In this document: positions 1 to 50,728 of the stretch, piece by piece
How positions within the stretch are numbered: the stretch's first letter is position 1
How the letters are laid out: each line of letters opens with the position of its first letter
Assembly: GCA_046497485.1 (NCBI GenBank)
Contig: JAWOFP010000006.1
Location: 1 to 50,987 of the forward strand
Source of the DNA: Candidatus Nanohaloarchaea archaeon
GTDB lineage: Archaea > Nanohalarchaeota > Nanosalinia > Nanosalinales > Nanosalinaceae
DNA: 50,987 bases
Direction: 5' to 3'
Translations under genes and position numbers: made by a program
The notes under the pieces: generated by a model
Database searches by the model: none
The model's input: only the letters and a program-made list of their open reading frames with translations
What the model was told of the DNA's origin: nothing

Positions 1-110
1 GTAACCCGACCTCAAGTAAGCATGACCTTCAATTCACATGCAAGGAATGTGGAAAGGCCTGGAAACCTAGAAATCAGCCAAGAGCAGCAAAGTTCGAGAT
101 AGAGAGGTAA
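1..110 (+). CDS. rpl44e: 50S ribosomal protein L44e, 3' part (truncated by window start)
   Basis: Manual translation NPTSSKHDLQFTCKECGKAWKPRNQPRAAKFEIER*; CxxC knuckle; canonical position before S27e and aIF2-alpha. Confidence 0.9.
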   Translation, partial: NPTSSKHDLQFTCKECGKAWKPRNQPRAAKFEIER

Positions 111-117
111 TTAATCA

Positions 118-291
118 ATGGCACAGAATTTTATCAGAGTAGAATGCGAAGAATGCGGAAACAAACAGAATATTTATTCAAGACCTGCTAACGAAGTTGA
201 ATGTCTTGTATGCAAGACTGTTATTGCTAAGCCGACCGGTGGAAAAGCCGAATTGAACGGCACAGTCCTGAAACAACTCGAAGTAGAGTAG
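118..291 (+). CDS. rps27e: 30S ribosomal protein S27e
   Basis: Manual translation MAQNFIRVECEECGNKQNIYSRPANEVECLVCKTVIAKPTGGKA..., 57 aa, C4 zinc ribbon and PTGGKA motif. Confidence 0.95.
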   Translation: MAQNFIRVECEECGNKQNIYSRPANEVECLVCKTVIAKPTGGKAELNGTVLKQLEVE

Positions 292-336
292 ACCAAGACC
301 CGCTTTTTAAATAACTCATCTTTTATTCTATACTTT

Positions 337-1086
337 ATGAAATGGTACAAAGATAGGCCTGAAGAAGGAGATTTTGTAGTAGTAAAACTTGTCGATGTAG
401 ATACTAACTCAGCCTTCGCAGAGCTAGAAGAATACGAAGACCAGAGAGGGATGATCCATATATCAGAAGCATCCAGGAGCTGGATTCAAGACTTAACTAA
501 AGAGTTCTCTGAAGGAGAGAAGACAGTCGCACAGGTAATTGAAGTAGACGATGATTCTATAGGCCTTTCTTTGAAGCGTGTAAATGATAAGCAGAAAAAG
601 GATACTATGGCTCGGTGGAGAAAAGAGGAGAAAGCCGAGAAGTTTGTTCAGGACCTTAAGGAAAAAGTTGATGTAGATGATATTTACGAAGATGTAGTAT
701 TCCCACTACAGAAAGAGTTTGAATCCTCTTTCCATGGTTTCGAGATTTCAATTGCTGAAGAAGCGAGACTGAAGGAGTTTCTAGACGATGAAGTAGTCGA
801 TGCGATACAAGAAGTAGCCAAAGAAAACATTGATTTGAAACAGGAGAAGTTTGAAGGAGTAATTGAGCTCGAATTCTATCAAGGAGATGGACTAGAAAGA
901 GTAAAAGACTGCTTTAACGAGACAGATGAAGGAGTAGAGATAAAGTACATGTCTGCTCCAAAATACAGTATTGAGGCCTGGGGGCGGACTCAGGAACTCG
1001 CTAAGAAGAGAATGGATACGGCGACAGATAAGATCCGGGAAAAGGCTGAAGAACTGGACGGAACCTTCAGTTTCTCAAAGGCATAA
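337..1086 (+). CDS. eif2a: Translation initiation factor aIF-2 alpha subunit
   Basis: N-terminal S1 domain (PEEGDFV, GMIHISE, LSLKRV), YMSAPKY motif, operon context. Confidence 0.95.
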   Translation: MKWYKDRPEEGDFVVVKLVDVDTNSAFAELEEYEDQRGMIHISEASRSWIQDLTKEFSEGEKTVAQVIEVDDDSIGLSLKRVNDKQKKDTMARWRKEEKAEKFVQDLKEKVDVDDIYEDVVFPLQKEFESSFHGFEISIAEEARLKEFLDDEVVDAIQEVAKENIDLKQEKFEGVIELEFYQGDGLERVKDCFNETDEGVEIKYMSAPKYSIEAWGRTQELAKKRMDTATDKIREKAEELDGTFSFSKA

Positions 1087-1091
1087 AAACA

Positions 1092-1238
1092 ATGATAAGG
1101 AAATGTACTGAATGTGGAGGCTTTACTCTACAAGAAAAACACTGTGATGAAGATACCGTCACAGCCAGGCCTCCGAAATTTTCATACCCTGATAAGTATG
1201 GAAAATACCGTAGAAAAGCTAAGCGTGGAGAAGTATAA
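1092..1238 (+). CDS. nop10: H/ACA RNP protein Nop10
   Basis: Manual translation MIRKCTECGGFTLQEKHCDEDTVTARPPKFSYPDKYGKYRRKAKRGEV; PPKFSxxDKYGKYRR signature; follows aIF2-alpha. Confidence 0.93.
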   Translation: MIRKCTECGGFTLQEKHCDEDTVTARPPKFSYPDKYGKYRRKAKRGEV

Positions 1239-1244
1239 CAAATT

Positions 1245-2213: not shown

Positions 2214-3332
2214 ATGAAAGTAGAGAACCTTAAACTACGTAAAATTTTAGACTCAAGAGTAAACTATACTGTAGAAGCAGAGATCAACGGAGAAAGAGCT
2301 GCCGCACCTTCAGGCGCATCCACGGGAACACATGAAGCAAAATGCTTCGTACCCGATCACCTGAATGAGATTGAAGATATGCTGCAGAGAACTGAAGGCG
2401 AAACATTTACTCAGGAAGAGTTCGACGACGCATTACATACATTTGATCAGACTGATAATTTCTCAAGGCTTGGCGCTTCAGCAATTTCCTCAAGCTTTGC
2501 ATTCAAGAAGGCCTCAGGCTTTAATCACACAAATAAGTTTCCGCTGCCTTTAAGTAATGTTATAGGCGGAGGAGAGCATGGAGGAAACACCTCAATCCAA
2601 GAATTCTTAGTCCTCCCTGTCAACGCAGAGAGCTTCCCTGAAGCAGTTGAAACTAATAAGAAGATCTACCATGAATTGAAAGAGAGGTACAGCCAGAAGA
2701 TCATGGGTATGAATGATGAAGGCGCACTAATCACATCAATGAACGATGAGCAAACTTTGAAAGCCTTGAAGAAAGTAGCAGACAAACATGATGCTCGTAT
2801 AGGCCTTGATATTGCAGCTTCAGAGTTCTATGAAGATGGGGAGTATAAATTCTCAAGTATGCATGAAACTTTCTCAGGAGAGGAAATGGTCGATTTTGTA
2901 GACACTTTAATCACGAAATTTGATCTAGTTTATGTGGAAGATCCTTTTGACCAGGAAGATTTCAAGAATCACGCAAAGTTAACGAAGATGCATCCTGATG
3001 TACTGATCTGTGGAGATGACCTATTCACCACGAACTATGAAAGACTGGAAGAAGGTATAGAGCACGGCGCATGCAACTCATTGATTGTTAAGCCTAATCA
3101 GATTGGAACGGTTACAGCTGCAGAACATACGGTAAATATTGCAGAAGAGCACGATTACACCCCTGTGATTTCCCATCGTTCAGGTGAGACTTGTGACGCG
3201 ACTATTTCAGATTTAGCATTGGAGTGGGAGTGTCCGATTATTAAGGCAGGTATCGCAGATATCAGAATTGCTAAATTAAATCGGCTTCTGCGACTTTGGG
3301 AAGAGAAAGAAGGGGCTGAAATCAGTTACTGA
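2214..3332 (+). CDS. eno: Enolase
   Basis: ILDSR, APSGASTG, EDPF, GDDLFTTN, VKPNQIGT, SHRSGET motifs. Confidence 0.96.
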   Translation: MKVENLKLRKILDSRVNYTVEAEINGERAAAPSGASTGTHEAKCFVPDHLNEIEDMLQRTEGETFTQEEFDDALHTFDQTDNFSRLGASAISSSFAFKKASGFNHTNKFPLPLSNVIGGGEHGGNTSIQEFLVLPVNAESFPEAVETNKKIYHELKERYSQKIMGMNDEGALITSMNDEQTLKALKKVADKHDARIGLDIAASEFYEDGEYKFSSMHETFSGEEMVDFVDTLITKFDLVYVEDPFDQEDFKNHAKLTKMHPDVLICGDDLFTTNYERLEEGIEHGACNSLIVKPNQIGTVTAAEHTVNIAEEHDYTPVISHRSGETCDATISDLALEWECPIIKAGIADIRIAKLNRLLRLWEEKEGAEISY

Positions 3333-3372
3333 AGTCGAGCCGTATTTAACTTTTGGTCATGAACTGTATGTC

Positions 3373-3978
3373 ATGACCGAGGAAGAACTTTTGATAGACC
3401 GTGAGGAATACCTGAAAAGAGGCGTCCATATTGGAACAAAATCCCAGCATACAGACATGGAAGACTATATTTTCCATGTAAAGAAGAACCAGCTGGCTGT
3501 AATTAATCTTACTAAGACAGATCAGCAGATCAGAGAAGCCGGCGAATTCCTTTCAGACTTCGAACCTGAAACAGTACTATTCGTAGGTAGAAAGCCTGAA
3601 GCGAAGGAACCGATCGAAAAAATATCTGACGCACTAGGAACTGCCTTTATCACAGGTCGTTTCATGCCAGGAAGCCTGACAAACCCTCAGTCAGAAAACT
3701 TTACAGAACCTGATGTAATCGTAACTATTGATCCTGAAGTCGATGCACAGGCAATTGATGAAGCAGCAGACACAAATGTACCTGTAGTATCCATGGCAGA
3801 CTCCGAGAACAGACTTGATAATATTGATGTAGTAATTCCTGCAAACAACAAAGGAGAGAAAGCTATTGGCACAGTACTATTCCTTCTAGGGAAGGAAATC
3901 GCAGAGCACAGAGACCTTGACTTTCACTACGAGCTTGAAGACTTCGCTGAAGTTGAAAAAGTAGAAGACGAAGAATGA
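3373..3978 (+). CDS. rps2: 30S ribosomal protein S2
   Basis: GVHIGT, GRFMPGSLTNP, IPANNKG motifs. Confidence 0.96.
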   Translation: MTEEELLIDREEYLKRGVHIGTKSQHTDMEDYIFHVKKNQLAVINLTKTDQQIREAGEFLSDFEPETVLFVGRKPEAKEPIEKISDALGTAFITGRFMPGSLTNPQSENFTEPDVIVTIDPEVDAQAIDEAADTNVPVVSMADSENRLDNIDVVIPANNKGEKAIGTVLFLLGKEIAEHRDLDFHYELEDFAEVEKVEDEE

Positions 3979-4490
3979 AAGCACTCCTAGTAACAGGAAC
4001 GGTCAGAGAAGGGAACAAAAGCCAACAGGTCGCAAAAGAGGCCTTAAACTACTTTTCTGAGGCTGGAGATGCAAAATTATTTGACCTGTGTGAAAAAGAA
4101 GTTCCTTTAATGGAACAGCGTTTGAGTCATGATGATTCTCCGCCTGAAGATGTTAAGGAGTTCAGAGAGTTAGTGGACTGGAGCGATGTAGTAATTCTGG
4201 TTACGCCAGAGTATAATCACAGTATTCCTGGTGCGTTGAAGAATTTGATAGATTATCTCTATGAAGAATATGATGGTAAGGCCTTTTCCTATATTACAAT
4301 TTCAGCCGGAGGATTTGGAGGAGTAAGAGCCCAGAGCCATCTCCATGATATTACTTTAGCAGTTGGTGGAAGGCCTGGCCCAAGTCTACATGTCTCAAAT
4401 GTAAATGAACATTTCTCCGAAGAAAATATTTCAGAGGAATACCAAGAGCGGTTGAAGAGTTTTGCTGAGAAAGTCGAGGATTTTGTTTGA
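3975..4490 (+). CDS. NADPH-dependent FMN reductase family flavoprotein
   Basis: GTVREG, TPEYNHSIPGALKNLID, GGFGG motifs. Confidence 0.9.
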   Translation: MKALLVTGTVREGNKSQQVAKEALNYFSEAGDAKLFDLCEKEVPLMEQRLSHDDSPPEDVKEFRELVDWSDVVILVTPEYNHSIPGALKNLIDYLYEEYDGKAFSYITISAGGFGGVRAQSHLHDITLAVGGRPGPSLHVSNVNEHFSEENISEEYQERLKSFAEKVEDFV

Positions 4491-4529
4491 ACCGAATGCT
4501 TTAAACCTAGGCCTTTCTAACATTGTTCT

Positions 4530-15870: not shown

Positions 15871-15943
15871 GCGGTGTTGGTCCAGTGGCCTAAGACCCCG
15901 GCCTTCCAAGCCGGTGACCCGGGTTCAAATCCCGGACGCCGCA
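15871..15943 (+). tRNA. tRNA-Gly (anticodon TCC), intron-less, CCA not encoded
   Basis: Acceptor GCGGTGT/ACGCCGC, anticodon arm CCGGC-CTTCCAA-GCCGG, T arm CCGGG-TTCAAAT-CCCGG, discriminator A; TATTTAAG box upstream. Confidence 0.97.
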
Positions 15944-15998
15944 TCTTTCATTCTATAGAGCCTAATCAAATATATTTTTTAGGTAGATAATTACTACA

Positions 15999-17322: not shown

Positions 17323-19833
17323 GTGAAAAAGGCAAAAACCATTGACCAGCTCTACGAAGTAGTCAAAGAGCATGAAACAGTTCTGACATCTGATGCCGGT
17401 CTGGCCGACGCACTGAATAGAAGACTTGACAGGCCTGTAAAGGGAAGTTTTGCATCGACACCGGGAAGACTGGCATCTTCTGGAGACGAGGAATCGAAGA
17501 AAGATGTCTTTCTGAAAGCAGTTGAAGAGACTGATTATTCTTGGAAGCAGATTTCTTATGCTTTAGATAAAATCTTTGAGGCCTGGAAACACACCGGCGA
17601 ACTCGAGAAAATACTGAGTTTTGAGAGATATGATAAAGAACTATTCCAGGATATTATAGAGATTACCAAGTCATCGAATACTTCATTTCATTCAGTGGAA
17701 GAGAAAGAATTTTCAGGAGATATCGCAGTAGTGAACCTTTACCAATTTAACGAACTGGATAAAACCACTTTACCAGATGAATTTAGGGAGTACAACCTTC
17801 TAACAGACGAGGAGACAAATTTAGAGGATTTCAACATCTATGAGTCAGGCCTGGACCTGGTGAATAGCCTTATAGATAATATAGAGTCTCTGGGAGCGGA
17901 AAATATCGGGGTAGTTGTAAGGCCTGAATCAAGGTATCAAAGCCTCTTGGAAGCATACTTCAAGTCAAAGAATATCTCTTATACGAGAGACGAGAATATT
18001 TCCGAAGACGATTATCTCAGAACATTTATTTCCCTGCTTGAGACAGGGGTTACAGATAGGAAGCTACGTGTCAGAGATGTTAAACCATTACAGGAAGGCC
18101 TAGGATTTGAATACAAGGGAGAGGACAATCAGTTCCTTGATTCGACAGATTCGGAGCTCAAAGAGTTCGTGAATATACTCGAGTTTATGGAGTTTGGTAA
18201 AGCACTGGAAGAATTAGAAAATATAACCGAAAACGATCTCAGCCATATCGAGACTTTGCTTGAAGACTTAGGCCTCTGGAATGAATCTATTAATTCCGAG
18301 AATGTCGGTAAATTAGGATACTTTATTGAGAACTTTGACAGCAAAATGGATGAGGAAAACTCTGGAGTGCTTCTAGCAGATCCAAAGAATGCGTCTGTTA
18401 TTGATAGGCCTTTAGTATTTTTACTTGGTATGAGCCGGGAGTGGAATGAATCATTTGATGAAGAGCCATGGGTCGATGAGGAATGGATTGAGGGAAGAAA
18501 TCTAAGAGATTTCACTCTTCTATGCCAGTCAGGAGACCAGAGATACTTCCTTGTTCAGGACAGAGAGCTGGAAGAAGACATCAAACCCTGCTTCCATCTG
18601 GATGAAATCACAGGAGAGAATATTGAAAGTTTCAGAGATTTGCCTCACAAATTCAGGGATTCAGGTTCTAGGCCTGAGGAATCAAAGTTTGATCTAGAAG
18701 AAGTCGAGAGGGAAGAAATTGATTATCTCAGCCAGTCAAGTCTGAGCGACTTAGCGCGTTCACCCCGACTCTATTACATGTCAAGACTGGTTTCAGAAGC
18801 TGAAGAAGAGCACCTGAAGAAAGGAGAACTATTCCACGACTTCGCAGAATTATACTACAACCATCCTGAAGAGACCAATGAAAACCTGGAGGAAATTTCA
18901 AAGATTTTTGCCGAAGAACTGGAAAAGATAGTCGATAATATCTCAATGATCCAGATAGAAACAGAGATCAAACACGGATTGAAGAACTTGATGGACTTCT
19001 TGGAGCCAGAAGAAGAGTATATCGGAGACGGTTATGTCGATACAGATTCAGAGAACTTCTTCGCCCAGAAACTAGGCCTAGAGATTGATACTAACTCGAC
19101 GGAGATGTACTTCAAAAAGGACGGAATGAAAGGCAAAGTCGATCTGATAGAATCGGAAACCCATTTAGTGGATTTCAAGTCAGGCCGGAAGAAATCAGTG
19201 AAAGATATAGTCAAATCTTCTAGGCCTGAAACATTTGAAGACGCGAAGTTCCCTAATTTCCAGGCCTTGATGTATCTCGCGCATCACTCCAAGCATGTGG
19301 ACGGGAATCTCGAGTTCTCTTTTGTCTACTTCCTTGATGGACTCGGCGACATTCTAGGTAATAGAGAGTCTGAGGAAATGGCCACCACTATCTCTTATGT
19401 CGATGAAAGTTTTGATCACAAAGTCTATTCTCATGATCTCTTCGAGTTCTTGATCAGAGATGTTAAACAGTCCAATAACAGGAGAAAAACTCTGGAGAAG
19501 ATAGGTTACACAGGGTTCGAAAACTTTTTCTCCCAGATGGAGTTCCCTGAGATATTCGATAAGGATGAGGTTTTGGAAACTCAGATTTATCAGGAGTTTG
19601 AGGCCTACTGTATAGAAGAAGTAGGCGACTACAAATATGTCAGGAAAGGAGTCAAATCAATGTTTAGAAAGATAATAGAGTATAGGAACACCCGATACTT
19701 TGAGGAAGATTTAGAGAATATTCAGGCCTTTGTAGAGGAAAAAATAAATGAAATCGAGAGTTATGAAGAAGATAGGTATCCTTTAGGGGATAGAGAGGTT
19801 TCAGAGCTTGGAAAGGAGGACTTGATAGTTTGA
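17323..19833 (+). CDS. AddB-like protein with C-terminal PD-(D/E)XK nuclease
   Basis: LSQSSL...P..YY, GELFHDFAE, GKVDLI, VDFKSG, QALMY; degenerate helicase-like N-terminus; overlaps next gene by 4 nt. Confidence 0.78.
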   Translation: MKKAKTIDQLYEVVKEHETVLTSDAGLADALNRRLDRPVKGSFASTPGRLASSGDEESKKDVFLKAVEETDYSWKQISYALDKIFEAWKHTGELEKILSFERYDKELFQDIIEITKSSNTSFHSVEEKEFSGDIAVVNLYQFNELDKTTLPDEFREYNLLTDEETNLEDFNIYESGLDLVNSLIDNIESLGAENIGVVVRPESRYQSLLEAYFKSKNISYTRDENISEDDYLRTFISLLETGVTDRKLRVRDVKPLQEGLGFEYKGEDNQFLDSTDSELKEFVNILEFMEFGKALEELENITENDLSHIETLLEDLGLWNESINSENVGKLGYFIENFDSKMDEENSGVLLADPKNASVIDRPLVFLLGMSREWNESFDEEPWVDEEWIEGRNLRDFTLLCQSGDQRYFLVQDRELEEDIKPCFHLDEITGENIESFRDLPHKFRDSGSRPEESKFDLEEVEREEIDYLSQSSLSDLARSPRLYYMSRLVSEAEEEHLKKGELFHDFAELYYNHPEETNENLEEISKIFAEELEKIVDNISMIQIETEIKHGLKNLMDFLEPEEEYIGDGYVDTDSENFFAQKLGLEIDTNSTEMYFKKDGMKGKVDLIESETHLVDFKSGRKKSVKDIVKSSRPETFEDAKFPNFQALMYLAHHSKHVDGNLEFSFVYFLDGLGDILGNRESEEMATTISYVDESFDHKVYSHDLFEFLIRDVKQSNNRRKTLEKIGYTGFENFFSQMEFPEIFDKDEVLETQIYQEFEAYCIEEVGDYKYVRKGVKSMFRKIIEYRNTRYFEEDLENIQAFVEEKINEIESYEEDRYPLGDREVSELGKEDLIV

Positions 19834-22499
19834 ATCCAAACAAACAGCAGCAAGAACTAATTGAGAATATTGACGGAGTTTATCTAGTTGATGCAGGAGC
19901 CGGGACAGGTAAGACTTTCTCAATCACACGCAGATACATGAATATTTTAGAGGATAATGAGCCAGAAGATATCTTCCTCGCAACATTCACCAGAAACGCT
20001 GCGGAGGAGATGAGCGATAGAATTGCATCTGATACAGATTATAAGGCCTCAGAAATATACAATGCACCTATCTCGACATTCCACAGCCATTGCCAGAAGA
20101 TACTGGAGAGACATGGATTCAATACTCCGAAAAAGATTGGAATTGACGATGAGTTAGAGCAGATTGATCCTTTGGAAAGCAAGATCCGGGAGGAGCAGTA
20201 CTTCGATGATTTCTATGAAAACTTTAGAGCCAATAATCCAGAATATAGAGAGTTCTATATAATTATTAGAGAGAGTCCTGAGCTTCTAGGCCTACTTAAA
20301 TCTCTGGCCAGCAGAGGAGTAATTCCTGAGGAAAAAGGTTGGTTCCTCGATTCGGAAGAATATCTTGATGGAGACTGGAAGGAATTTAGAAGACTTTTCA
20401 AAGAAGTGAACAGGCCTAGGAAAACCAGTTCGGGCCAGAAGCAAAGTATTCTGAGACAGAGGATGTACGGATATAACTATAAAGAGTTTCCGGAAGATGC
20501 GCCAGAATACAACGATATTGTAGGAGATTACGGCTGCAAACAGGTTAGAAAGGATTTCTGTAGGAAGAGCTTCAAAGAAGACAGAGAAAAACTAAAGGAC
20601 TTTATTCATGATATTTACTACAGTTACTTGAAGTACTGTCTTGAGAACAACTTTCTGAATTTCGGTTTCTTGATGGCTTTAACCTATGTAACTCTTTATA
20701 GAGATGAGGAAGCTCGTGAAGACGAGAAATTCAACTACATAATGATTGACGAGTTTCAGGATACAAATGAGATCCAGTTAAAGATTTCAATGCTTCTGGC
20801 GGACAGGCCTAATATTTGTGTGGTAGGAGACTGGAAGCAGTCAATCTACAGTTTTCAATATGCGGATATCGACAATATCAAGAGTTTTGAGACCCGTATA
20901 AACAGGATAATATCTCATCTGAATGAAGATAAAAAGCGAGTTAATTTTTCGGAAATCGAAGTAGAGAAAATAAATTTGATCAAGAACTACAGATCCTCTC
21001 AGAAGATTCTGGATGCCTCCGAACAGGCCTTCACGCTGAAAGGAAACCGTTATGAGGAAGTGCCTGAACCAGATATCGTATCACTGGAGTCAGAGGCTGA
21101 TATAGAGGATTCCGAGGTCGGAAAGTATCTCTGCGAAGACGAAAAAGAAAATATATTGGCAAAGATTCAGGAAGTGGTTGATGAAAATGATTACGATTAC
21201 TCCGATATCGCAGTCCTCTCCCGGACAAGAAAGACAGGCCTAAAACTTCAGGAGCTGGGCTCAGAATACAATATCCCGGTTGCATATGAGGGAGGCCTTG
21301 AACTGTTCAACACTGAAGAAGCCAAGTTATTACTTGCGTGGCTGAGAGCGATGAACGACTCCAGAAAAGGCTGGGCTGTCATACTGGAGAGAACAGGTTA
21401 CAGCATGACGCAGGCTAAGAAAATATTTGAGGAAGAAGAGATTCCAGAAAACTTGCTGGCTTTCAAGGATAAAGTTGAAGGCCTAGAGTTTGAAGCCCAG
21501 ATGCGTAGAATCTTCGCTTTCTATGGGTTTGAGAATGCTGTAACAGAGAAAGTAATTGATGTACTGACCGATACATACAAATCGAGTTTTATGACCCGCT
21601 CCGACCTTATTCAGTTTATTGAGGAGAATATTAATCAGCGAGAGATTTATGAAGTCGATACATCTAGAGATAGAGACAGCGTAAAGGTTCAGACTATTCA
21701 CGGCGCCAAAGGCCTAGAATATCCTGTTGTATTTATCGCAGATGTAAATTACGGGACTTTCCCATCGAAAAACAGCAGCTATGGGAGCATAAACTTTGAG
21801 GAGGTGATAGGACTTCGTCAGAGAAAAATATTTGACGAGGAAAATGGTTATGTCTTCGATAACTGGCGCTCAGAAATCCTATCTAAATGTGTGGGCGGAA
21901 AATACGATGAGGAACGCAGACTGATGTATGTAGCCATGACCCGTGCAGAAGAAAAGCTCTACATTTCAGCAGAACAGGAGAAGGAAAGCAGATTCTTTGA
22001 AGATTTGGAGCTAGAGGAAGAATTTCTTGATAAGAAACCTAAAGTTCAGGAAGAAGAGGAAAGCGAAAAAGAAGAACTGAAAGTAGAGGAACCTGATTCT
22101 ACAAGAACCAGACTGGTTTCTACTTCCGAGCATGTCGAGCTAGATGATGAATTAACAGATAATATTGAGCGAGGCGATGAGCTACACAGATTTGCAGAAG
22201 AATTCATAGAAAACAATAGAAGGCCTGAAACCACGGAAGAGGAAAAAATTGTGGAATTCATTGAAGGCCTAGAAGGAGATATAGAATCTGAGGTCAAGTT
22301 CACCTATCCTGAGAATGGGAAAGTTTACACTGGTAGAGCCGATATAATCGCGGAAACGGAAGAAAATGTAAAAGTAATTGATATCAAGACCTCCGACAAT
22401 TTCTCAGAGGCCTACAAAGACCAGATGGAGCTCTACGAAAAGGCCTTCCAAGCAATTTATCCTGATAGAAAAATTGAGACTGAAATATTCGAGGTTTAA
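19830..22499 (+). CDS. UvrD/AddA-like SF1 helicase with C-terminal PD-(D/E)XK nuclease
   Basis: AGAGTGKT, TFTRNAA, IDEFQDTN, VGDWKQSIYSF, NYRS, TIHGAKGLE, EERRLMYVAMTRA; GRADI...IDIKT...QMELY. Confidence 0.92.
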   Translation: MNPNKQQQELIENIDGVYLVDAGAGTGKTFSITRRYMNILEDNEPEDIFLATFTRNAAEEMSDRIASDTDYKASEIYNAPISTFHSHCQKILERHGFNTPKKIGIDDELEQIDPLESKIREEQYFDDFYENFRANNPEYREFYIIIRESPELLGLLKSLASRGVIPEEKGWFLDSEEYLDGDWKEFRRLFKEVNRPRKTSSGQKQSILRQRMYGYNYKEFPEDAPEYNDIVGDYGCKQVRKDFCRKSFKEDREKLKDFIHDIYYSYLKYCLENNFLNFGFLMALTYVTLYRDEEAREDEKFNYIMIDEFQDTNEIQLKISMLLADRPNICVVGDWKQSIYSFQYADIDNIKSFETRINRIISHLNEDKKRVNFSEIEVEKINLIKNYRSSQKILDASEQAFTLKGNRYEEVPEPDIVSLESEADIEDSEVGKYLCEDEKENILAKIQEVVDENDYDYSDIAVLSRTRKTGLKLQELGSEYNIPVAYEGGLELFNTEEAKLLLAWLRAMNDSRKGWAVILERTGYSMTQAKKIFEEEEIPENLLAFKDKVEGLEFEAQMRRIFAFYGFENAVTEKVIDVLTDTYKSSFMTRSDLIQFIEENINQREIYEVDTSRDRDSVKVQTIHGAKGLEYPVVFIADVNYGTFPSKNSSYGSINFEEVIGLRQRKIFDEENGYVFDNWRSEILSKCVGGKYDEERRLMYVAMTRAEEKLYISAEQEKESRFFEDLELEEEFLDKKPKVQEEEESEKEELKVEEPDSTRTRLVSTSEHVELDDELTDNIERGDELHRFAEEFIENNRRPETTEEEKIVEFIEGLEGDIESEVKFTYPENGKVYTGRADIIAETEENVKVIDIKTSDNFSEAYKDQMELYEKAFQAIYPDRKIETEIFEV

Positions 22500-22880: not shown

Positions 22881-23792
22881 ATGTATATTTACCGACTCGC
22901 AGGAGAGAATTTGGATTTGGCTGAGGCAGAGTTGAATGGATTCTTAGAAGCAGTTGGAGCTAATGAGATGGCTTCAAGAGATGGTAGGTTGGCCTTCACA
23001 GAGTCGCATCCCGAACAGTTGAAGAGACTGGCGCTTACTCATGAGGTACTGGAGAAGATCGATCCGGAAGAATTCAGGCCTGAAGGAAGTTATGCTGTAA
23101 GAGTCGAGAACCTTTCACAAAAAAATATTGAGAAAGAGGAAATTGAGTCAGAGATAGGACAGAAAATCTCAACTAAAGAAAATTCTGTGGACCTGGAAAA
23201 TCCTGAAACCGTAATTAAAGTCTATATTACAGAAGGAAAAAGATTTTATGCAAAGTTAGTTGAGGATATTCCAAGGAATCTTTTTGAGGAGAGAAGCAAC
23301 GAGAAGAGGCCTTATTCTTCCCCTATTTCAATGGACCCTGTTCTGGCAAGAGTATTAGTTAATTTATCTGAGGCTTCTTTAGGAGGATCTATTTTAGATC
23401 CTTTCTGTGGGACTGGCGGAATACTGATTGAAGCAGGTCTCTGTGGAATAATGCCTAAAGGCCTCGATATTCAAGAGGAAATGGTCGAAGGCTGTAAGGA
23501 AAACCTGAACAACTATGGAATAATTAATTTCGATGTTCAGAAATGCGACATATCTGAAGCTAATGAAGTATTTGATGAATATAACGCCGTTATATCCGAC
23601 CTACCGTATGGAAAGGCCTCAAAGCAGGAAAATGAAGCAATAGAAAGATTTCTGGATTTAATCGAAAATTTTGAGGGAAAAACAGTTTTCATGTATAATA
23701 AGGCTTCCGTAGGAGAGTATAAGGCTGATTTCGAGGTTTATGTGCATAAGAGCTTGACTAGACATATTTACATAATTTCTAAACCATCTTGA
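22881..23792 (+). CDS. tRNA (guanine-10-N2) methyltransferase, THUMP plus Rossmann MTase (Trm-G10/Trm11)
   Basis: VDLENP, RPYSSPISMDP, DPFCGTGGILIEA, DLPYG; start moved to ATG 22881 to avoid overlap with the divergent gene. Confidence 0.88.
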   Translation: MYIYRLAGENLDLAEAELNGFLEAVGANEMASRDGRLAFTESHPEQLKRLALTHEVLEKIDPEEFRPEGSYAVRVENLSQKNIEKEEIESEIGQKISTKENSVDLENPETVIKVYITEGKRFYAKLVEDIPRNLFEERSNEKRPYSSPISMDPVLARVLVNLSEASLGGSILDPFCGTGGILIEAGLCGIMPKGLDIQEEMVEGCKENLNNYGIINFDVQKCDISEANEVFDEYNAVISDLPYGKASKQENEAIERFLDLIENFEGKTVFMYNKASVGEYKADFEVYVHKSLTRHIYIISKPS

Positions 23793-31041: not shown

Positions 31042-32043
31042 TCAAACCAGTTCTCTGTAAACTTCTAAAAGACCTTCTCCAACCTTTTCAAGTCTAAATT
31101 CCTGGCTTTTCTCCTGAGCTGAGTTTCCGATTGAATCTCTCTTTCCCTCATCTTCAATCAGTTCTTGGAGCACTGGCGTGAAATCTTCTGAGGCCTTCAA
31201 ACAGTTTTCACCACCTTCCAGCCACTCAAAAGTCTCAATATCTCTAACAACCGGAGGCTTACCGCATGACATTGCTTCAAGAAGAGCCATCCCCTCATTT
31301 TCATTCTTTGTAGGGAAAAAGAAGATATCTCCGGCAGCAAAAGCCCCTCTTACATCATCAATAAAACCTGTGAAAGTGCAATTGTCAAGAGAACTCTCAA
31401 CCAATTCTTGAGTCTCATTACTGCGGATAAATCTATCGAAGAATCCTTCTCCACCTGTGGGGTTCACCCATCCAAACCATACAAAATCTGTCTCCGGCAT
31501 TTTTTCAGCTGTCTCAACAAAACTCTTCAGGCCTTTCCTCTTAATCACATGGCCGACGCAGAAGACTACAGGAGGCTCCAAATCATATTTCTCAAGGTAT
31601 TCTTCTCTCAAATCTTCGAATCCATCAAGTTTATCCGAATCAAAGCCATTGCTCAAAACTGTTTTAGGAGTATCAGTATAAGAATCAAGTAACTCTTTAT
31701 TGAATTTTGAAGGACAGATTATATGATCCGCTAACCCATAGGCAAATTTGAGATAAGGTTTCAGAGGCTTAGCTAAAATATTAGAAAACGCAAAGCTGTC
31801 TTGAAAATCCTCAGCTGTTAAATGAGCATGAACCACTACAGAAATATCATTTCTCTTAGCTCTAAAGGCATAATAGACTGATTTAGGCCCCATTAAGTTC
31901 AAATGAAGGATATCTGCATCCTTCTCAAACTTCTCCGAATATTCTACCCCATTTTCCTCCAGTATCTTTCTCTGATTCTTCACCGACTGCTTCTGCCCGC
32001 CAGTGATCGTATCTCCAAACTCGAAGTAGTGGCTGATCTTCAT
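31042..32043 (-). CDS. GT4 glycosyltransferase
   Basis: HAHLTAEDFQDSF, RKGLKSF, ENEGMALLEAMSCGKP motifs. Confidence 0.9.
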   Translation of the reverse strand: MKISHYFEFGDTITGGQKQSVKNQRKILEENGVEYSEKFEKDADILHLNLMGPKSVYYAFRAKRNDISVVVHAHLTAEDFQDSFAFSNILAKPLKPYLKFAYGLADHIICPSKFNKELLDSYTDTPKTVLSNGFDSDKLDGFEDLREEYLEKYDLEPPVVFCVGHVIKRKGLKSFVETAEKMPETDFVWFGWVNPTGGEGFFDRFIRSNETQELVESSLDNCTFTGFIDDVRGAFAAGDIFFFPTKNENEGMALLEAMSCGKPPVVRDIETFEWLEGGENCLKASEDFTPVLQELIEDEGKRDSIGNSAQEKSQEFRLEKVGEGLLEVYRELV

Positions 32044-32096
32044 TGTAAGTTAGTTATAAGAAAAAGATGTAAAATATGTTGGTTGACTTATTCCGA

Positions 32097-32522
32097 CTAC
32101 TGTGTTTGGATTTCCCCCATAAATACTCCGCTAACTGATTGTTGTGTGCCTTCAGACGTATATGTAAACTCAACTGGAACTTCATTGCAAGAGTCCGACG
32201 TATCTAAATTAATTTGAGTTATTTCAACAACTGAGGCTTGACCTATTCCTATAGACTCTGATAAGTCTTCAGACTGACCATATATAGTAATAGATTCTAG
32301 TTCAACAGTTGAGGCTGCACCATTTCTCAACTCAATTTGCATTTGTCCTTGATCATTTAGATCAAAGTTTTCAACAACTAAATCTTCTCCTGTAAATCCT
32401 GAAGTAGTTTGAGTACAAGTTTCTTGAGTTGTAGCGAATAGGGCGCCTCCAACAATCGAAATCACGGGAATTGCTACTATCCCCATAACTAAAACAGCCA
32501 GTAATAGAATTTTTTTGCTCAT
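32097..32522 (-). CDS. Pilin-like protein (paralog of 40286-40801) lacking a class III cleavage motif
   Basis: IVGGALFATTQETCTQTTSGFTGEDLVVENF aligns with IVGGAIFATVQGQCTQSTSGFSGGDVLIDNF; shared ELRNG/EVRNG and SDxCN. Confidence 0.8.
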   Translation of the reverse strand: MSKKILLLAVLVMGIVAIPVISIVGGALFATTQETCTQTTSGFTGEDLVVENFDLNDQGQMQIELRNGAASTVELESITIYGQSEDLSESIGIGQASVVEITQINLDTSDSCNEVPVEFTYTSEGTQQSVSGVFMGEIQTQ

Positions 32523-32629
32523 AAAACATATTTTTCCGAATTCGGTTAAATATGTTTTTTGCCAATAATCTTCAAATTAGATCAAAAGCTTTTGATTAAA
32601 AACGTGGAAATCTCAATTAATATTTAGAA

Positions 32630-33667
32630 ATGTTCAAAGGTTTCAACTCAGAGAAGGTTAAAAATATTTTCTGGTTTGGGATAGCCAGTCTAATTTTCGC
32701 AGGCCTTGTGTTACTGGCAGATCTAAATAAATTAATCACAGCTTTAACTGAGGCCAAATTAATCTATATGATTTTCTCATGTGCTGCAGGATTCTCTATA
32801 ATATTAGCATGGACGTTAAACTGGTTTAATTTTTTCAAAGTCTCCAAAATAAACTGTAGCTTTCCAAGAACATTCCAGCTCTTCTCTGCAGGACAGTTTA
32901 TCAATTCTATAACCCCTTTAGGCCAGTTCGGAGGCCAACCATTCATGGCTTATCTGATATCGACGCATTCAGATACTTCATATGAAGAATCACTGGCAAC
33001 AGTGATGTCGGCTGACGTGCTAGCTATTATGCCTCTTTCAACTTTTGTGATAATCGGATATTCTTACATTACGATAACAGGCACAGTTTCAGGAGAATTA
33101 ACGAGAATGGCTTTGATAGCTTCTTCCCTACTAATTTTTGGAATAGTTATGAGCTATCTAGGATGGTACAGGCCTGGAAGTCTTGAAAATACCTTGCTTA
33201 AAGTCACGGAAGGTATAACTAATTTTATAGGCCGAGGTTCAAGCTTTGTAGATAAACTAGAAGAAAAGCTGGAAAATGTCGAGGAAACCTTCAAAACAGT
33301 CGGAGAGCATCCAAAGGCAGTTATTCGATCCCTTGCGATAACTCATACAGCTTTTCTACTTAAAATGACGGCTTTCTATGGAGTAATGCTTTCAGTAGGC
33401 CTTGAAATGAATCCTTTTCAGGTAATGCTGTTAATACCTTTAGCAAGTGTAGCAAATTTCTCTCCTACACCTGGAGGCGCGGGCACATTTGAAGCTGCGA
33501 TGGCAGGCCTGATAGTTCTTTTTGTAGATGTTAACCTGGCAACAGCTTTAACAGCAGCTATTCTTTACCGTCTAGCTACTTACTGGGTCAATATAATAGT
33601 AGGATACATCGCAATGAGCTCACTTAATTATGATATTGGAGATATAGGAAATACTCAGAAAACCTGA
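32630..33667 (+). CDS. Second UPF0104 flippase-like membrane protein
   Basis: NSITPLGQFGGQP, PTPGGAGTFE, ILYRL; clear paralog of 27310-28332. Confidence 0.88.
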   Translation: MFKGFNSEKVKNIFWFGIASLIFAGLVLLADLNKLITALTEAKLIYMIFSCAAGFSIILAWTLNWFNFFKVSKINCSFPRTFQLFSAGQFINSITPLGQFGGQPFMAYLISTHSDTSYEESLATVMSADVLAIMPLSTFVIIGYSYITITGTVSGELTRMALIASSLLIFGIVMSYLGWYRPGSLENTLLKVTEGITNFIGRGSSFVDKLEEKLENVEETFKTVGEHPKAVIRSLAITHTAFLLKMTAFYGVMLSVGLEMNPFQVMLLIPLASVANFSPTPGGAGTFEAAMAGLIVLFVDVNLATALTAAILYRLATYWVNIIVGYIAMSSLNYDIGDIGNTQKT

Positions 33668-47646: not shown

Positions 47647-47746
47647 ACTTTCTATTTGTGGTGCCGGATTAAAATCAATTTGTGCGACACTACCCCAGGA
47701 TTACAACGGCCGATTTAAATGGAGGCCTCGCCCATTTACAGTTATT

Positions 47747-50284
47747 ATGGAAGGCGAAAGCGTACTCTGGTTCAAGGAAATCGGAGCAAATGATAAGGCA
47801 AAAGTAGGTGGAAAGAGCGCAAATCTCGGAGAACTTCAAAAAGAGGTGGATGTACCTGTACTGCCAGGATTTGCTACAACAGCAGATGCGTACGATCACT
47901 TTATCCATGAGACAGGCCTAAAAAATAAGATTGAGGAGACTTTAGACGATTTAGATAATGATGATGTAAAGGATTTACAGATGAGAGGCCAGCAGATCCG
48001 TTCAATGATTAAGGAAGCGGATATGCCTCGAGACCTTAAAAATGAGTTCGCAGCAGCCTACGAGCAGTTAGAGGAAAATCTTGGAGTAGAGAATCCTGAA
48101 GTAGCTGTTCGTTCAAGCGCTACAGCAGAGGATCTTCCCGGAGCATCTTTCGCCGGACAACAAGAGACTTACCTAAATGTTTCAGGTAAACAAGATTTAG
48201 TTAAAAGAATTAAGGACTGCTTCGCCTCCTTATTTACAAACAGAGCGATTTCCTATAGAGAAGACAAGGACTTCTCACATTTCGATGTAAAGTTAAGCGC
48301 TGTAGTCCAGAAAATGGGTAGAAGTGATGTAGGTGCGGCAGGAGTAATGTTCACAATGGACCCTGACTCAGGATTCGAAAATGTAGTAACAATCAACGGA
48401 AGCTACGGCCTAGGAGAATATGTAGTACTAGGAGAAGTTAATCCTGACGAGTTCACAGTATTCAAAGAGAATCTCGGTATAATTGAAAAGCACAAAGGAG
48501 AGAAAGAAGTAAAACTTGTTAGAAACCCTGACCACGAGCAGGGAGACGATACTGAGAACAAAGAAGAAAAAGTTCCAAAGAGTGATAGAGAAAAGTTCTG
48601 TATAACAGACAACCAGGTTGTCGAACTCGCTAAATATGCGATGAAAATTGAGGACCACTACGGAAAGCCTATGGATATCGAATGGGTTCTCGATGGCCAA
48701 ACCAATGAACTATATATTGTCCAGGCAAGGCCTGAAACCGTTCAAGCCGAGAAGGATGAAAACATAATAGAAGACTACAAGCTCAAGGAAGAGTCCGAAG
48801 TTCTTCTTGAGGGATCCGCGATCGGATCAAAGATCGGTTCAGGAAAAGCCCATGTACTGGAGTCTCCTAAACAAATCGATCAGTTCGAGGAAGGAGAAGT
48901 CCTAGTAACAGACATGACAGATCCAGACTGGGAGCCTATTATGAAGAAGGCCGGAGCAATAATCACAAACAAAGGAGGAAGAACAAGTCACGCAGCAATC
49001 GTCTCCAGAGAACTAGGAGTTCCCGCCGTGATTGGAACCGAAAACGCAACCTCCAAAATACCTAACAAAAAGGCCGTGACGGTTGACTGTTCGTCAAGCA
49101 CAGGAAAGATCTGGGACGGAGAAATAGAGTTCGAAGTAGAAGAACACCACTTAGATAATATTCCCGATACGGAGACAGATGTCCAGATTAACATAGGTGA
49201 ACCGAGCGAAGTCTTCCATCTAGCGCAGTTACCTGTAGATGGAGTAGGCCTTGCAAGAGAAGAGTTCATTATCTCAAGTCATGTGGGAGAGCACCCGCTT
49301 AAACTTATTGAAGAAGGCCGTGAAGATGAGTATGTCAGAGCGCTTCGTTCAGGCCTCGGAAAAATTGGAGCAGCTTTCTATCCAGACCAAGTAGTTGTAA
49401 GACTTTCAGACTTTAAGTCTGATGAGTATGCTGACTTGAAGGGCGGAGAAGATTACGAGCCGGATGAAGCTAATCCTATGCTTGGATTCAGAGGCGCCTC
49501 CCGTTACTATGATGAGGTCTTTTCTCAGGCCTTCGAGCTTGAATGTAAAGCACTGCGTCAGGCGATCGACGACTTAGGACTGGATAACATCACGATCATG
49601 GTTCCTTTCTGCCGTACAGTAGATGAAGGAAAGAATGTTCGTGCCAAGATGAAAGAGTACGGACTTGACCAGGGAGATATCGATGTCTTTGTGATGGCAG
49701 AGCTTCCTGCTAACATTTTGAGAGCAGAGGCATTCAGCGATGTATTCGATGGATTTTCCATTGGTACTAATGACTTGACTCAGACTACTTTGGGAGTAGA
49801 TAGGAACAGTGATAAGTTGAAGGACTTGTTCGATGAAAGGGATGAAGCAGTCAAAGAATCCGTATCGACTTTAATCGATAAGGCTCATAGAAAAGGTAGA
49901 CATGTCGGTATCTGTGGAGATGCACCGAGTACACACGATGAGTATGCGCCTTTCCTAGTAGATGAGGGAATCGATGCTATCTCAGTCAGTCCCGATGTTG
50001 CTTTAGAGACTATCTTGAAAGTAGCCGAGGCAGAAGAAAACAGAGACTCAAAAGTGCCTGTCCAGGTAGGAGAAAACTTCAGTAAACAAGATGTTGGAAA
50101 CGCAGCTGGAGAGATTTATGACACACTGAATCAGCATGGATCTGCTAAGGCCTCAGCCTTGAAGAGTTACACTTCTGATCTGCATGATCAGGTGCGTGAA
50201 CAGGCCTTAGGATGGCTTGCGAAAGAAGATAAAGTTGAGATAGATGAAGAGAACGGCGAGATAACCTATAGGCTAGATGAGTAA
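47747..50284 (+). CDS. ppsA: Phosphoenolpyruvate synthase with extra C-terminal winged-helix domain
   Basis: VGGKSANLGE, AVRSSATAEDLP.ASFAGQQ, QARPETV, GGRTSHAAIVSRELG, NPMLGFRG, FSIGTNDLTQ; start moved from 47603 to ATG 47747 behind a TTTAAA box. Confidence 0.96.
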   Translation: MEGESVLWFKEIGANDKAKVGGKSANLGELQKEVDVPVLPGFATTADAYDHFIHETGLKNKIEETLDDLDNDDVKDLQMRGQQIRSMIKEADMPRDLKNEFAAAYEQLEENLGVENPEVAVRSSATAEDLPGASFAGQQETYLNVSGKQDLVKRIKDCFASLFTNRAISYREDKDFSHFDVKLSAVVQKMGRSDVGAAGVMFTMDPDSGFENVVTINGSYGLGEYVVLGEVNPDEFTVFKENLGIIEKHKGEKEVKLVRNPDHEQGDDTENKEEKVPKSDREKFCITDNQVVELAKYAMKIEDHYGKPMDIEWVLDGQTNELYIVQARPETVQAEKDENIIEDYKLKEESEVLLEGSAIGSKIGSGKAHVLESPKQIDQFEEGEVLVTDMTDPDWEPIMKKAGAIITNKGGRTSHAAIVSRELGVPAVIGTENATSKIPNKKAVTVDCSSSTGKIWDGEIEFEVEEHHLDNIPDTETDVQINIGEPSEVFHLAQLPVDGVGLAREEFIISSHVGEHPLKLIEEGREDEYVRALRSGLGKIGAAFYPDQVVVRLSDFKSDEYADLKGGEDYEPDEANPMLGFRGASRYYDEVFSQAFELECKALRQAIDDLGLDNITIMVPFCRTVDEGKNVRAKMKEYGLDQGDIDVFVMAELPANILRAEAFSDVFDGFSIGTNDLTQTTLGVDRNSDKLKDLFDERDEAVKESVSTLIDKAHRKGRHVGICGDAPSTHDEYAPFLVDEGIDAISVSPDVALETILKVAEAEENRDSKVPVQVGENFSKQDVGNAAGEIYDTLNQHGSAKASALKSYTSDLHDQVREQALGWLAKEDKVEIDEENGEITYRLDE

Positions 50285-50311
50285 AATATTCTTTTACTCT
50301 CTTTTCTCTTA

Positions 50312-50728
50312 TTATCTGAAATCTATTCTTGATTTGTAGACTTGTTCTCCCTGATGCTTTACTGTAACCCATTTCTGTCCATCAACAGGGACAGTCTCAG
50401 CATCGTAGACTCCTACTGCATAACATGTGTGTTCAAAGTCTTGAGGCTCGAACTCATCTTCAGCGTAGACGTTTAGAATTATTCTATCGTTTCTTTCTTC
50501 GTATGTGTACTTCATGTCTGCTTGAGTATTTTGAACTGGGAAGAATCCTTCGACTTGTAAATGGTTGTTCTGAGCGGAGACATCTACTGATTCGCCTCTG
50601 TCGAATCTGCACTCGGTCTCGAGATCTGTAAAATGAATTTCCTGTGCGTTAACCCCTAAAATTAGGCCTGTTACTCCGACTAGTAGTATTGTGAATGTGA
50701 TCCCCCAGAACTTTGACATAGTTACCAT
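50312..50728 (-). CDS. Secreted or membrane-anchored hypothetical protein
   Basis: N-terminal hydrophobic segment, beta-rich body with two Cys. Confidence 0.65.
   Translation of the reverse strand: MVTMSKFWGITFTILLVGVTGLILGVNAQEIHFTDLETECRFDRGESVDVSAQNNHLQVEGFFPVQNTQADMKYTYEERNDRIILNVYAEDEFEPQDFEHTCYAVGVYDAETVPVDGQKWVTVKHQGEQVYKSRIDFR

Follow-up and report, generated by a model that had tools for sequence, protein, structure and literature searches.

AGGCCT is a highly iterated palindrome in a nanohaloarchaeal genome and has no apparent DNA methyltransferase partner

Introduction

Highly iterated palindromes (HIPs) are hyper-abundant words of cyanobacterial genomes. As described in the accessible parts of two reports (PMC4390886, PMC5861425), HIP1 (GCGATCGC) and its alternates GGCGCC, GCsGC, and rCCGGy occur in all reading frames and in spacers, are conserved over background, are present or absent between relatives, and override codon choice. 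The same portions state that alternate HIPs reach 1000-2000 per Mb and are in every case accompanied by a methyltransferase that matches the word (Elhai, 2015; PMC4390886), and that HIP1 shows both conservation and a periodicity of 10-90 kb (Xu et al., 2018; PMC5861425). A further HIP-like word, CAGGCCTG, is given there for Synechococcus sp. PCC 6312 at 0.37/kb, with an observed/expected ratio (O/E) of 14.7 (PMC5861425), and HIP1 has been proposed as a DNA-uptake watermark (PMC13756078, as far as its available text goes). For three decades HIPs have lacked an explanation, and so far they have been studied in cyanobacteria only, where the trait is near-universal and therefore hard to dissect. 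Here, we describe such a word in a different domain of life: the hexamer AGGCCT in a 50,987-bp stretch of DNA, hereafter the window, from Candidatus Nanohaloarchaea archaeon (GenBank assembly GCA_046497485.1, contig JAWOFP010000006.1), in which an initial annotation made from the sequence alone had noticed a HIP-like excess.

Other over-represented words offer points of comparison. The uptake sequences of the Neisseriaceae (DNA uptake sequence, DUS) and the Pasteurellaceae (uptake signal sequence, USS) are non-palindromic, 9-12 bp in length, and occur about once per kb; to our knowledge, no DNA uptake is known for nanohaloarchaea. Chi is asymmetric, oriented with replication, and read by RecBCD or AddAB. 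In the Dcm/Vsr very-short-patch repair of E. coli, a methylated palindrome becomes enriched through correction of T:G mismatches to C, an effect that is mild, and in Methanothermobacter the T:G glycosylase Mig adjoins a GGCC methylase.

A literature search (supplements lay outside it) found no paper that joins AGGCCT with nanohaloarchaea or reports its abundance in archaea, in keeping with the initial annotation, which knew of no description from DPANN archaea. The single nanohaloarchaeal methylome found shows, in the accessible parts of its reports, only the motif GDGcHC, with calling confined to N6-methyladenine (m6A) and N4-methylcytosine (m4C) (PMC10266531, PMC11001535).

Results

The window equals the entire contig C62 of its source genome (G000; 967,558 bp in 66 contigs, completeness rated 97%) and has a G+C content of 41.0%. 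It holds exactly 182 copies of AGGCCT, which form a dispersed array at 55..50669 without strand assignment, the first copy at position 55 and the last at 50664-50669. Base composition predicts 7.7 copies, and dinucleotide-preserving shuffles of the window (n = 100) contained 11.42 ± 3.36, the largest number being 21, so that none reached 182. The excess is thus 16- to 24-fold, depending on the choice of null; the initial estimates of about 180 sites and a roughly 25-fold excess were close to these values. Sites lie on average 280 bp apart (median 227 bp), the largest gap being 1238 bp, and 73% of the window's 248 GGCC tetramers sit within AGGCCT. The whole genome has 3249 copies in its 967,558 bp, or 3.36/kb, with O/E values of 21.1, 14.8, and 6.35 under Markov models of order 0, 1, and 2, respectively; at order 4 the O/E is only 1.09, because the pentamers in that model already hold the signal. 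No hexamer is more frequent in G000 than AGGCCT (6498 two-strand counts vs. 3024 for the runner-up, GAAGAA), which accounts for 3249 of its 4608 GGCC tetramers (70.5%). Copy numbers of the remaining 15 NGGCCN words range from 18 to 173, none of these words being enriched and TGGCCA and GGGCCC being depleted; hence the possibility, raised at the outset, that all GGCC-containing hexamers are equally enriched does not hold. Each of the 66 contigs carries the word at 1.8-5.8/kb. Since nothing long is conserved in the flanks, which show only weak single-base biases, AGGCCT is not a repeat element. The base at -1 (A.30, C.25, G.26, T.20) is that of a strict hexamer, and all enriched genomes have in common a weak symmetric bias of the flanks, with T frequent at -4/-3 (0.33-0.60; background 0.27-0.31) and infrequent at -1. 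As a GC-rich palindrome with an O/E above 10 and at least about one copy per kb genome-wide, AGGCCT in G000 is a highly iterated palindrome and a real archaeal case.

The word is indifferent to coding. Open reading frames (ORFs) were called crudely (ATG start, at least 80 amino acids, greedy and non-overlapping), giving 980 ORFs that cover 83% of G000, and AGGCCT density was equal in coding (3.31/kb) and non-coding (3.49/kb) DNA. Sites in frames 0, 1, and 2 numbered 476, 905, and 1282, with 567 intergenic; the corresponding numbers for the window were 36, 63, and 67, with 16 intergenic, and 105 of its genic sites fell in plus-strand and 61 in minus-strand genes. All three frames are represented within the plus-strand aIF2-alpha gene (337-1086), at 355..360 (frame 0, AGG-CCT, Arg-Pro), 974..979 (frame 1, xAG-GCC-Txx), and 561..566 (frame 2, xxA-GGC-CTx), just as initially read. 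Seven positions had also been cited as intergenic: by our ORF calls this is correct for 4509 (site 4509..4514, no strand), 6264, 16655, 40246, and 47201, while 43290 and 47723 lie inside ORFs of uncertain reality or start. Synonymous-codon shuffling left 367 ± 17 copies in the genome's ORFs (maximum 392, 30 shuffles) and permutation of whole-codon order 172 ± 12, compared with 2650 observed; synonymous shuffling of the window's ORFs left 22.8 ± 4.4 (maximum 33, 200 shuffles) compared with 165 observed. For 13 control words, comprising other GGCC hexamers and palindromes, the ratios were 0.31-1.42. The word therefore occurs in every frame and in non-coding DNA beyond what codon usage would give, as HIPs do, and the initial claims that no codon or dipeptide bias explains it and that the phenomenon is genome-wide and acts at the DNA level are borne out by the counts, the shuffles, and the non-coding density.

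Composition, the usage of codons or amino acids, or a dispersed repeat might in principle yield AGGCCT as a by-product. Such a reading could draw on the order-4 O/E, though this figure says little since the model contains the enriched pentamers, and on contigs of a viral collection in which collagen-type Gly-Pro repeats spell the word. However, both kinds of codon shuffle, the equal density in non-coding DNA, the unconserved flanks, the involvement of all contigs, and relatives of similar G+C content with no excess (e.g., G014, 0.27/kb) refute this reading, and we consider its probability to be virtually nil.

G014, a non-enriched genome, served as the reference for further comparisons and G005 as a second strongly enriched genome. 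Of the coding positions at which the encoded amino acids permit AGGCCT, 2654 of 3979 (66.7%) are occupied in G000, 3377 of 4610 (73.3%) in G005, and 21.6% in a third genome, G004, vs. 139 of 1605 (8.7%) in G014. Permissible positions are themselves more frequent, at 14.8 (G000) and 15.2 (G005) vs. 9.1 (G014) per 1000 codons. The dipeptides involved are over-used in the enriched proteome (O/E of Arg-Pro 1.60 vs. 0.83 and of Gly-Leu 1.44 vs. 1.01 in G014), their reversals being flat, and in orthologue alignments 940 positions are permissible in G000 only vs. 420 in G014 only. AGGCCT has thus filled two thirds of the positions open to it in G000 and has altered protein sequences. Strictly non-coding densities were 3.36/kb (G000), 5.59/kb (G005), 1.18/kb (G004), and 0.27/kb (G014). 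Relative to G014, the odds of AGGCCT over its 18 one-off variants were 11.4 (G000) and 17.3 (G005) in non-coding DNA and 21 and 29, respectively, at permissible coding positions; a force of similar strength acts on both kinds of sequence. AGGCCT is maintained, then, as a DNA word, and not as codons, RNA, or a repeat element. The one-off variants were not drained by this enrichment (3.2/kb in G000 vs. 2.95/kb in G014, non-coding; genome-wide ratios to G014 0.8-1.7), and T-variants showed no depletion in G000 (AGGCTT/AAGCCT 1.13 and AGGTCT/AGACCT 1.03 times their frequency in G014). Deviants at positions 3/4 stood at 0.50-0.54 of the G014 level in G005, while G000 had no position-specific depletion.

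Conservation of sites between orthologues, a check suggested by the initial annotation, was compared in five pairs of enriched genomes belonging to the genus of G000 or involving its members (12-34 sites per pair). Between 44 and 62% of sites were kept (e.g., 16 of 34 from G000 to G001, 13 of 21 from G002 to G003, and 8 of 16 from G000 to G010), as opposed to 10-16% of all hexamers, so that AGGCCT, like HIPs, is conserved over control sequence, albeit in small samples. A different picture emerged from G003 and its sister G004, whose alignment covered ~8.4 kb at 72-79% identity. Twenty-six of 31 G003 sites were gone in G004, whereas all five G004 sites were also in G003, and 14 of the 26 losses were single C>T or G>A changes (to AGGCTT, 5; AAGCCT, 4; AGACCT, 3; AGGTCT, 2). 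Retention in G004 was under background (2 of 16, or 12%, vs. 26.5% of hexamers), and this genome had the highest O/E of such transition "ghosts" (AGGTCT/AGACCT, 2.31; AGGCTT/AAGCCT, 1.87). Its residual enrichment (O/E 6.8) is even across all 24 contigs. These comparisons indicate that the sites are held against C>T decay in enriched genomes, and G004 may be read, within such small samples, as a lineage that has lost the force or has it in weaker form. A scan of G004 for pseudogenes gave no convincing candidate, as the in-frame stops either precede the true starts or fall in short ORFs of doubtful reality. In contigs of related strains from public runs, none of 40 listed differences (of ~3,034) fell in 72 sites, where 0.9 would be expected, a sample too small to be informative.

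Sites are also spaced more evenly than random in G000 (coefficient of variation 0.90; variance/mean 0.76 per kb), with 197 gaps below 50 bp where 438 are expected and an excess at 100-400 bp. Occupancy rose with distance to the nearest other site, from 0.10 (6-12 bp) through 0.34 (12-25 bp), 0.57 (25-50 bp), and 0.60 (50-75 bp) to 0.68 (75-100 bp), and was 0.68-0.78 beyond 100 bp, with a peak at 100-300 bp and 0.68-0.71 beyond 300 bp; the permutation null was 0.63-0.68 (standard deviation 0.01-0.05). Since occupancy is no higher at isolated positions, there is no sign of selection filling gaps. In G005, repulsion was seen only below 25 bp and 1-kb counts were near Poisson (variance/mean 0.94). 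The short-range repulsion may come from a footprint, from a per-fragment advantage with diminishing returns, or from hairpin avoidance. The window's largest site-free stretch (2807..4038, no strand; 1238 bp between sites) covers the 3' part of the enolase gene and ribosomal protein S2, and a second of more than 1 kb (31535..32700, no strand) covers a glycosyltransferase and an ORF without assigned function.

Judged by aIF5B, in which G000 is 77% identical to Ca. Haloredivivus sp. G17, 75% to metagenome-assembled genomes of Nanohaloarchaea, and ~65% to Ca. Nanohalobium and Ca. Nanohalococcus, the source organism is a nanohaloarchaeon. Among 31 genomes searched, AGGCCT reached about 3-4.75/kb in G000-G003 (same genus), G005, and G010, and 0.95/kb in G004; these seven are counted as enriched. 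The remaining 24 had ~0.04-0.6/kb, similar to or under a reversed control word. Across the family, enrichment was strong in 12 of 50 genomes and 4 of 21 genera (the tool used rounds genome sizes), namely in 4/5 genomes of genus g1, 3/3 of g7, 3/3 of g28, and 2/6 of g2, vs. 0/33 in the other 17 genera. In a maximum-likelihood tree of aIF5B (30 genomes, 590 columns), g1 formed one clade (100/100) with G004 sister to G003 (100/100), G005 stood beside the non-enriched G006 (98/87), and G010 was basal to seven non-enriched genera (84/90). Constraining the seven enriched genomes into one clade cost 19.7 log-likelihood units (p-AU 0.026), and the aIF5B tree thus rejects a single enriched clade. Moreover, 952 of 1647 aligned G000 sites (58%) fall where the G005 amino acids forbid AGGCCT, and the reverse holds too; where both permit it, G005 is occupied at 80% of positions if G000 is occupied and at 57% if it is not. 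Such a pattern would fit saturation that arose several times independently, or else one origin followed by many losses. Taken together, the genomes indicate that enrichment was switched on or off repeatedly among close relatives.

In some family genomes, G034, G056, and G042, AGGCCT is scarce (55, 73, and 97 copies per ~1 Mb) relative to TCCGGA, a control of the same composition (362, 491, and 344). This scarcity would agree with avoidance if a restriction system that cuts AGGCCT circulates among these relatives.

Among the checks suggested by the initial annotation was a search for a Vsr-like gene or a methyltransferase of AGGCCT or GGCC that co-occurs with the word. The sole C5 methyltransferase of G000 (type II, 388 amino acids) is encoded on contig C53 (C53:98-4274, locus L003), divergent from an McrB-like AAA_5 ATPase (536 amino acids) and an uncharacterised 451-amino-acid protein. 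C53 has the lowest AGGCCT density in G000 (1.83/kb) and therefore looks like a recently acquired restriction-modification-like island. In comparison with solved structures, only the catalytic core of the enzyme aligned with M.HaeIII, so that no specificity can be deduced. A protein search found no relatives of it in G001-G005 or G010, which leaves it in one of the seven enriched genomes, and PF00145 (C5) was found in none of five further genomes (G047, G048, G037, G051, and G052). PF01555 (N4/N6) exceeded the cut-off in 7 of 31 genomes, none of them enriched, and among the five further genomes gave a true match only in G047, G037 clearing the cut-off only together with neighbouring hits. Strong PF02384 (N6) matches among enriched genomes were confined to G005 and G047, and PF02086 (Dam/D12) was found in none of five genomes. 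PF07669 (Eco57I type) was represented by an intact large gene in G005 (1239 amino acids), a gene split by a stop in G010, a match below threshold in G048, and in G000 a 166-amino-acid frame (C34:4969-5202, 25.4 bits) that resembles what is left of a large type IIG-like gene such as those of G005 and G010; comparable large genes also occur in non-enriched genomes. In G010 and G048, both single-contig and strongly enriched, the five families tested yielded no intact DNA methyltransferase. A weak sub-threshold PF01555 match in the window is explained by a THUMP + UPF0020 RNA methyltransferase (22881..23789, plus strand), which is no candidate for a DNA methyltransferase. Vsr was not found in G000, and HhH-GPD copies, three to four in enriched and two to three in non-enriched genomes, were not discriminating. 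An island of ~22 kb in G005 (669,977-692,221), which holds a type I HsdM gene, contains the largest AGGCCT gaps of that genome (2.0-4.1 kb); this and the C53 methylase island would represent acquired DNA that does not carry the word. On gene content, then, enriched genomes share no DNA methyltransferase family among those tested, neither a cognate C-methyltransferase nor a T:G endonuclease or glycosylase co-varies with AGGCCT in the genomes searched, and the suggested link to methylation is not supported.

Candidate readers of the word were sought more widely. The window encodes an AddAB-like pair on its plus strand, an 836-amino-acid protein with a PD-(D/E)XK nuclease domain (17323..19833, GTG start) followed with a 4-bp overlap by an 889-amino-acid UvrD/PcrA-family helicase (19830..22499). 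The helicase is closest to PcrA (best solved relative, 3e-35; AddA, 1e-14), AddAB membership of the pair is not established, and the nuclease is a candidate reader only. The pair is patchy in the order (18 of 31 genomes), occurring in 7/7 enriched and 11/24 non-enriched genomes, and the AddB-like nuclease thus failed the phyletic test over the 31 genomes as a driver. The same test was failed by VRR-NUC, Nre, SAM synthetase, Mrr, HhH-GPD copy number, and a class-I SAM methyltransferase with its MGMT/ATL-like neighbour.

The last two genes form an apparent operon, in which a methyltransferase of ~247 amino acids overlaps an MGMT/ATL-like DNA-binding protein of 127-129 amino acids (G000 C2:15547-16667, minus strand; G005 L114:9467-10593). 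The methyltransferase orthologue, at 67% identity, occurs in G000 and G005 only among the 31 genomes, which suggests transfer between two enriched lineages. The Mrr-type restriction endonuclease domain of G000 (C59:11594-11934) is split over frames of 81 and 167 amino acids, so the gene is probably broken, and adjoins a motif-poor stretch (C59:7088-11337).

We also contrasted gene content for genes present in G000 and G005 and absent from G014 and/or G004, using the whole of G004 and G005 and 620 of 957 kb (65%) of G014. tblastn gave 227 candidates, of which synteny confirmed 23 as truly absent from G014; the 13 that were read look metabolic, e.g., a glycogen/glycolysis block. G005 orthologues were annotated against Pfam in sets of 77, 26, and 17. 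The block (G000 C44:12244-17715) consists of four genes, for a glycogen-synthase-like protein (by sequence reading), amylo-alpha-1,6-glucosidase, triose-phosphate isomerase, and an ADP-dependent sugar kinase; G000 and G005 have the block and G004 has half of it, whereas in G014 the flanking genes stand side by side without it. A screen for anomalously high G000-G005 identity yielded transporters, a NikR-like regulator, and the methyltransferase cassette, with no common driver.

Discussion

AGGCCT behaves in sequence comparisons like the cyanobacterial HIPs and yet appears to lack the methyltransferase that accompanies them. According to the accessible text on HIPs (PMC4390886, PMC5861425), every HIP genome has a methyltransferase recognising its word, whereas the AGGCCT genomes seem not to, and the density of 1000-2000 per Mb is exceeded by the 3360 per Mb of AGGCCT. 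Further differences from HIP1 are the other domain of life, the short-range site repulsion, and the decaying sister lineage. The nearest described word, CAGGCCTG of PCC 6312, has the same AGGCCT core, is likewise a GC-rich palindrome with a similar O/E (14.7 vs. 15-21 here), supplants the usual word in one lineage only, and has no explained cause, as far as the consulted portions of its sources go (PMC5861425, PMC13756078). By the same portions, however, it is an octamer found at 0.37/kb in a bacterium, whereas the nanohaloarchaeal word is a strict hexamer found at 3.4/kb in an archaeon, and GGCC methylation is known in cyanobacteria, whereas in nanohaloarchaea no methyltransferase appears to track AGGCCT.

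Uptake sequences resemble AGGCCT in being lineage-specific, present in both orientations and within genes, protein-changing, over-evenly spaced, and explicable by molecular drive, but ComEC and DprA were not found in the five genomes tested. Chi is likewise a short, GC-rich, over-represented self-marker, and the AddAB-like pair is at hand in the window and in all enriched genomes; its occurrence in non-enriched genomes and the affinity of the helicase to PcrA set the two cases apart. Because AGGCCT is its own reverse complement, it can show no strand skew, unlike Chi. Dcm/Vsr repair differs from AGGCCT in that no Vsr was found in G000, no methylase co-varies, and T-variants are undepleted.

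We propose that AGGCCT tags DNA as self and that a sequence-specific factor, one that processes or binds DNA but is not a classical DNA methyltransferase, reads this tag, which spreads by drive or selection; to this reading we give a probability of roughly 0.4. Tagged DNA would be favoured in recombination, repair, or DNA exchange, either by molecular drive, as has been proposed for uptake sequences, Chi, and HIP1, or by selection; such favouring would fill the genome to saturation, and loss of the reader would leave the tags to decay, as may have happened in G004. Since the determinant appears to switch readily, it is probably mobile, allelic, or extrachromosomal (plasmid or host). A more specific version, in which the word is a methyltransferase-independent, horizontally switchable "genome watermark" whose putative reading factor, maybe extrachromosomal or host-supplied, saturates the genome with the hexamer, alters proteins at hundreds of positions, and comes and goes within genera, is tentative and, on balance, doubtful. 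In favour of the self-tag are the uniform, DNA-level distribution of the word, its saturation of permissible positions with rewriting of proteins, its maintenance in enriched genomes, its switching among relatives, its lack in acquired DNA, the want of a co-varying methyltransferase, the small contribution of a second site close by, and the precedents of CAGGCCTG and of the watermark proposal for HIP1. Several points weigh against the self-tag. No candidate reader passes, all those considered having failed the phyletic test, and the search for ComEC (PF03772) and DprA (PF02481) found each in 0/5 genomes, three of the five being enriched; a bacterial-type uptake route is therefore not indicated. 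The genes of the window include PilC-like T2SSF genes. A 6-bp palindrome provides little information for distinguishing own from foreign DNA, and drive and selection are inseparable by equilibrium frequencies. The repulsion length is unlike between genomes (up to ~75-100 bp in G000, less than 25 bp in G005) and has a simpler possible cause in the 6-bp hairpin that two mutually reverse-complementary AGGCCT copies can form. Furthermore, the comparison of G003 with G004 spans only ~8.4 kb, polyphyly is drawn from one gene plus the collection's genus labels, and the case against methylation is drawn from methyltransferase gene content.

Methylation-coupled, biased mismatch repair would account for the same sites as a functionless by-product: in Elhai's ratchet, as in Dcm/Vsr repair, AGGCCT or GGCC would be methylated and T:G mismatches corrected to C. 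The decay in G004 speaks for it, since the losses are mostly C>T or G>A in the GGCC core, proceed faster than those of average hexamers, and leave the highest O/E for the corresponding T-variants, although AT-biased mutation alone would also give such decay. In the accessible parts of the cyanobacterial reports, each alternate-HIP genome has its matching methyltransferase (PMC4390886) and GGCC is a known methylation target (PMC13756078), and G000 does hold one C5 methyltransferase. That enzyme, however, was found in just one of the seven enriched genomes among the 31 searched and lies in motif-poor DNA; PF00145 and PF02086 were absent from the five further genomes, true matches to PF01555 and PF02384 do not follow the trait, and Eco57I-type genes are intact in G005 only. 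Nor was Vsr found in G000, HhH-GPD copy number is uninformative, the T-variants and one-off words of G000 are undrained relative to G014 (ratios of 1.03-1.13 for T-variants), and the model does not predict short-range repulsion. We therefore regard the ratchet as unlikely, though still to be taken seriously.

A nucleoid or chromatin protein, dimeric and positioned or loaded at AGGCCT, with selection keeping ~1 site per 300 bp everywhere, would agree with the equal coding and non-coding density, the over-even spacing of G000, the footprint-like suppression of occupancy to ~75-100 bp, and the weak symmetric flank common to all enriched genomes; a chromosome-structure role has been argued for HIP1 by Xu et al. 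(PMC5861425, in its accessible part). We find it quite improbable, as no candidate protein co-varies with AGGCCT, an essential architecture would need gain and loss within genera, the exclusion in G005 is below 25 bp with near-Poisson 1-kb counts, isolated positions are not more occupied, and the bias at -1 may partly reflect avoidance of TAG. Alternatively, the determinant could lie wholly outside the chromosome, on a plasmid or virus or in the haloarchaeal host, whose proteins might arrive via cell-cell bridges, enrichment then tracking the host or element. This would explain both the absence of a co-varying chromosomal gene in single-contig genomes and the flips of the trait within genera, and the available text of one report gives evidence for a nanohaloarchaeal methyltransferase acting on the host genome, which makes protein traffic plausible (PMC11001535). 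Still, the idea is purely inferential, and the sole nanohaloarchaeal methylome found shows GDGcHC alone, its calling being confined to m6A and m4C (PMC10266531); we consider it very unlikely.

Whatever its cause, the signal is stronger than that of cyanobacteria, at 3.4/kb with two thirds of permissible positions filled, and comes without the methyltransferase link that underlies the leading cyanobacterial model. It also comes with natural contrasts, namely a genus in which two of six species are enriched, a decaying sister species, and four enriched genera of 21. These contrasts, together with the missing methyltransferase link, make what writes or maintains such words directly testable. In practical terms, AGGCCT distorts codon usage and protein composition, its absence marks foreign DNA islands, and in hypersaline metagenomes it could act as a signature for binning or for assigning hosts. 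If the watermark reading were true, the system would be sequence-directed genome editing of a new class, propelled by drive, and would offer a natural on/off series, the first of its kind, for finding the cause of HIPs.

Some minor observations complete the analysis. A viral collection was scanned with three spaced AGGCCT, and among the matches listed the densest loci examined (L298 and L234) proved to be collagen-repeat genes, a trivial cause. One contig (IMGVR_UViG_3300040801_001687, 77 kb; loci L247 and L261) is AT-rich (31-33% G+C) and contains two loci (4.5-6.3 kb, O/E >30) with 14 AGGCCT apiece; its small ORFs have no Pfam match and no collagen repeats, but three close sites were the basis on which the loci were selected. 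About viruses of nanohaloarchaea the scan is not informative in either direction. CCGG-containing hexamers are 2-3 times rarer in G000 and G005 than in G014 (ACCGGT 0.30/0.39, AACCGG 0.38/0.26, ACCCGG 0.39/0.34), which may be a by-product of shifted Gly, Pro, and Ala codons or a separate avoidance. Finally, the gene content of the window is one of ordinary archaeal housekeeping genes, and it includes a tRNA-Gly(TCC) gene at 15871-15943, which accounts for a spike in depth (283-411) and many loose ends at ~15,890-15,950 when metagenome contigs are placed on the window.

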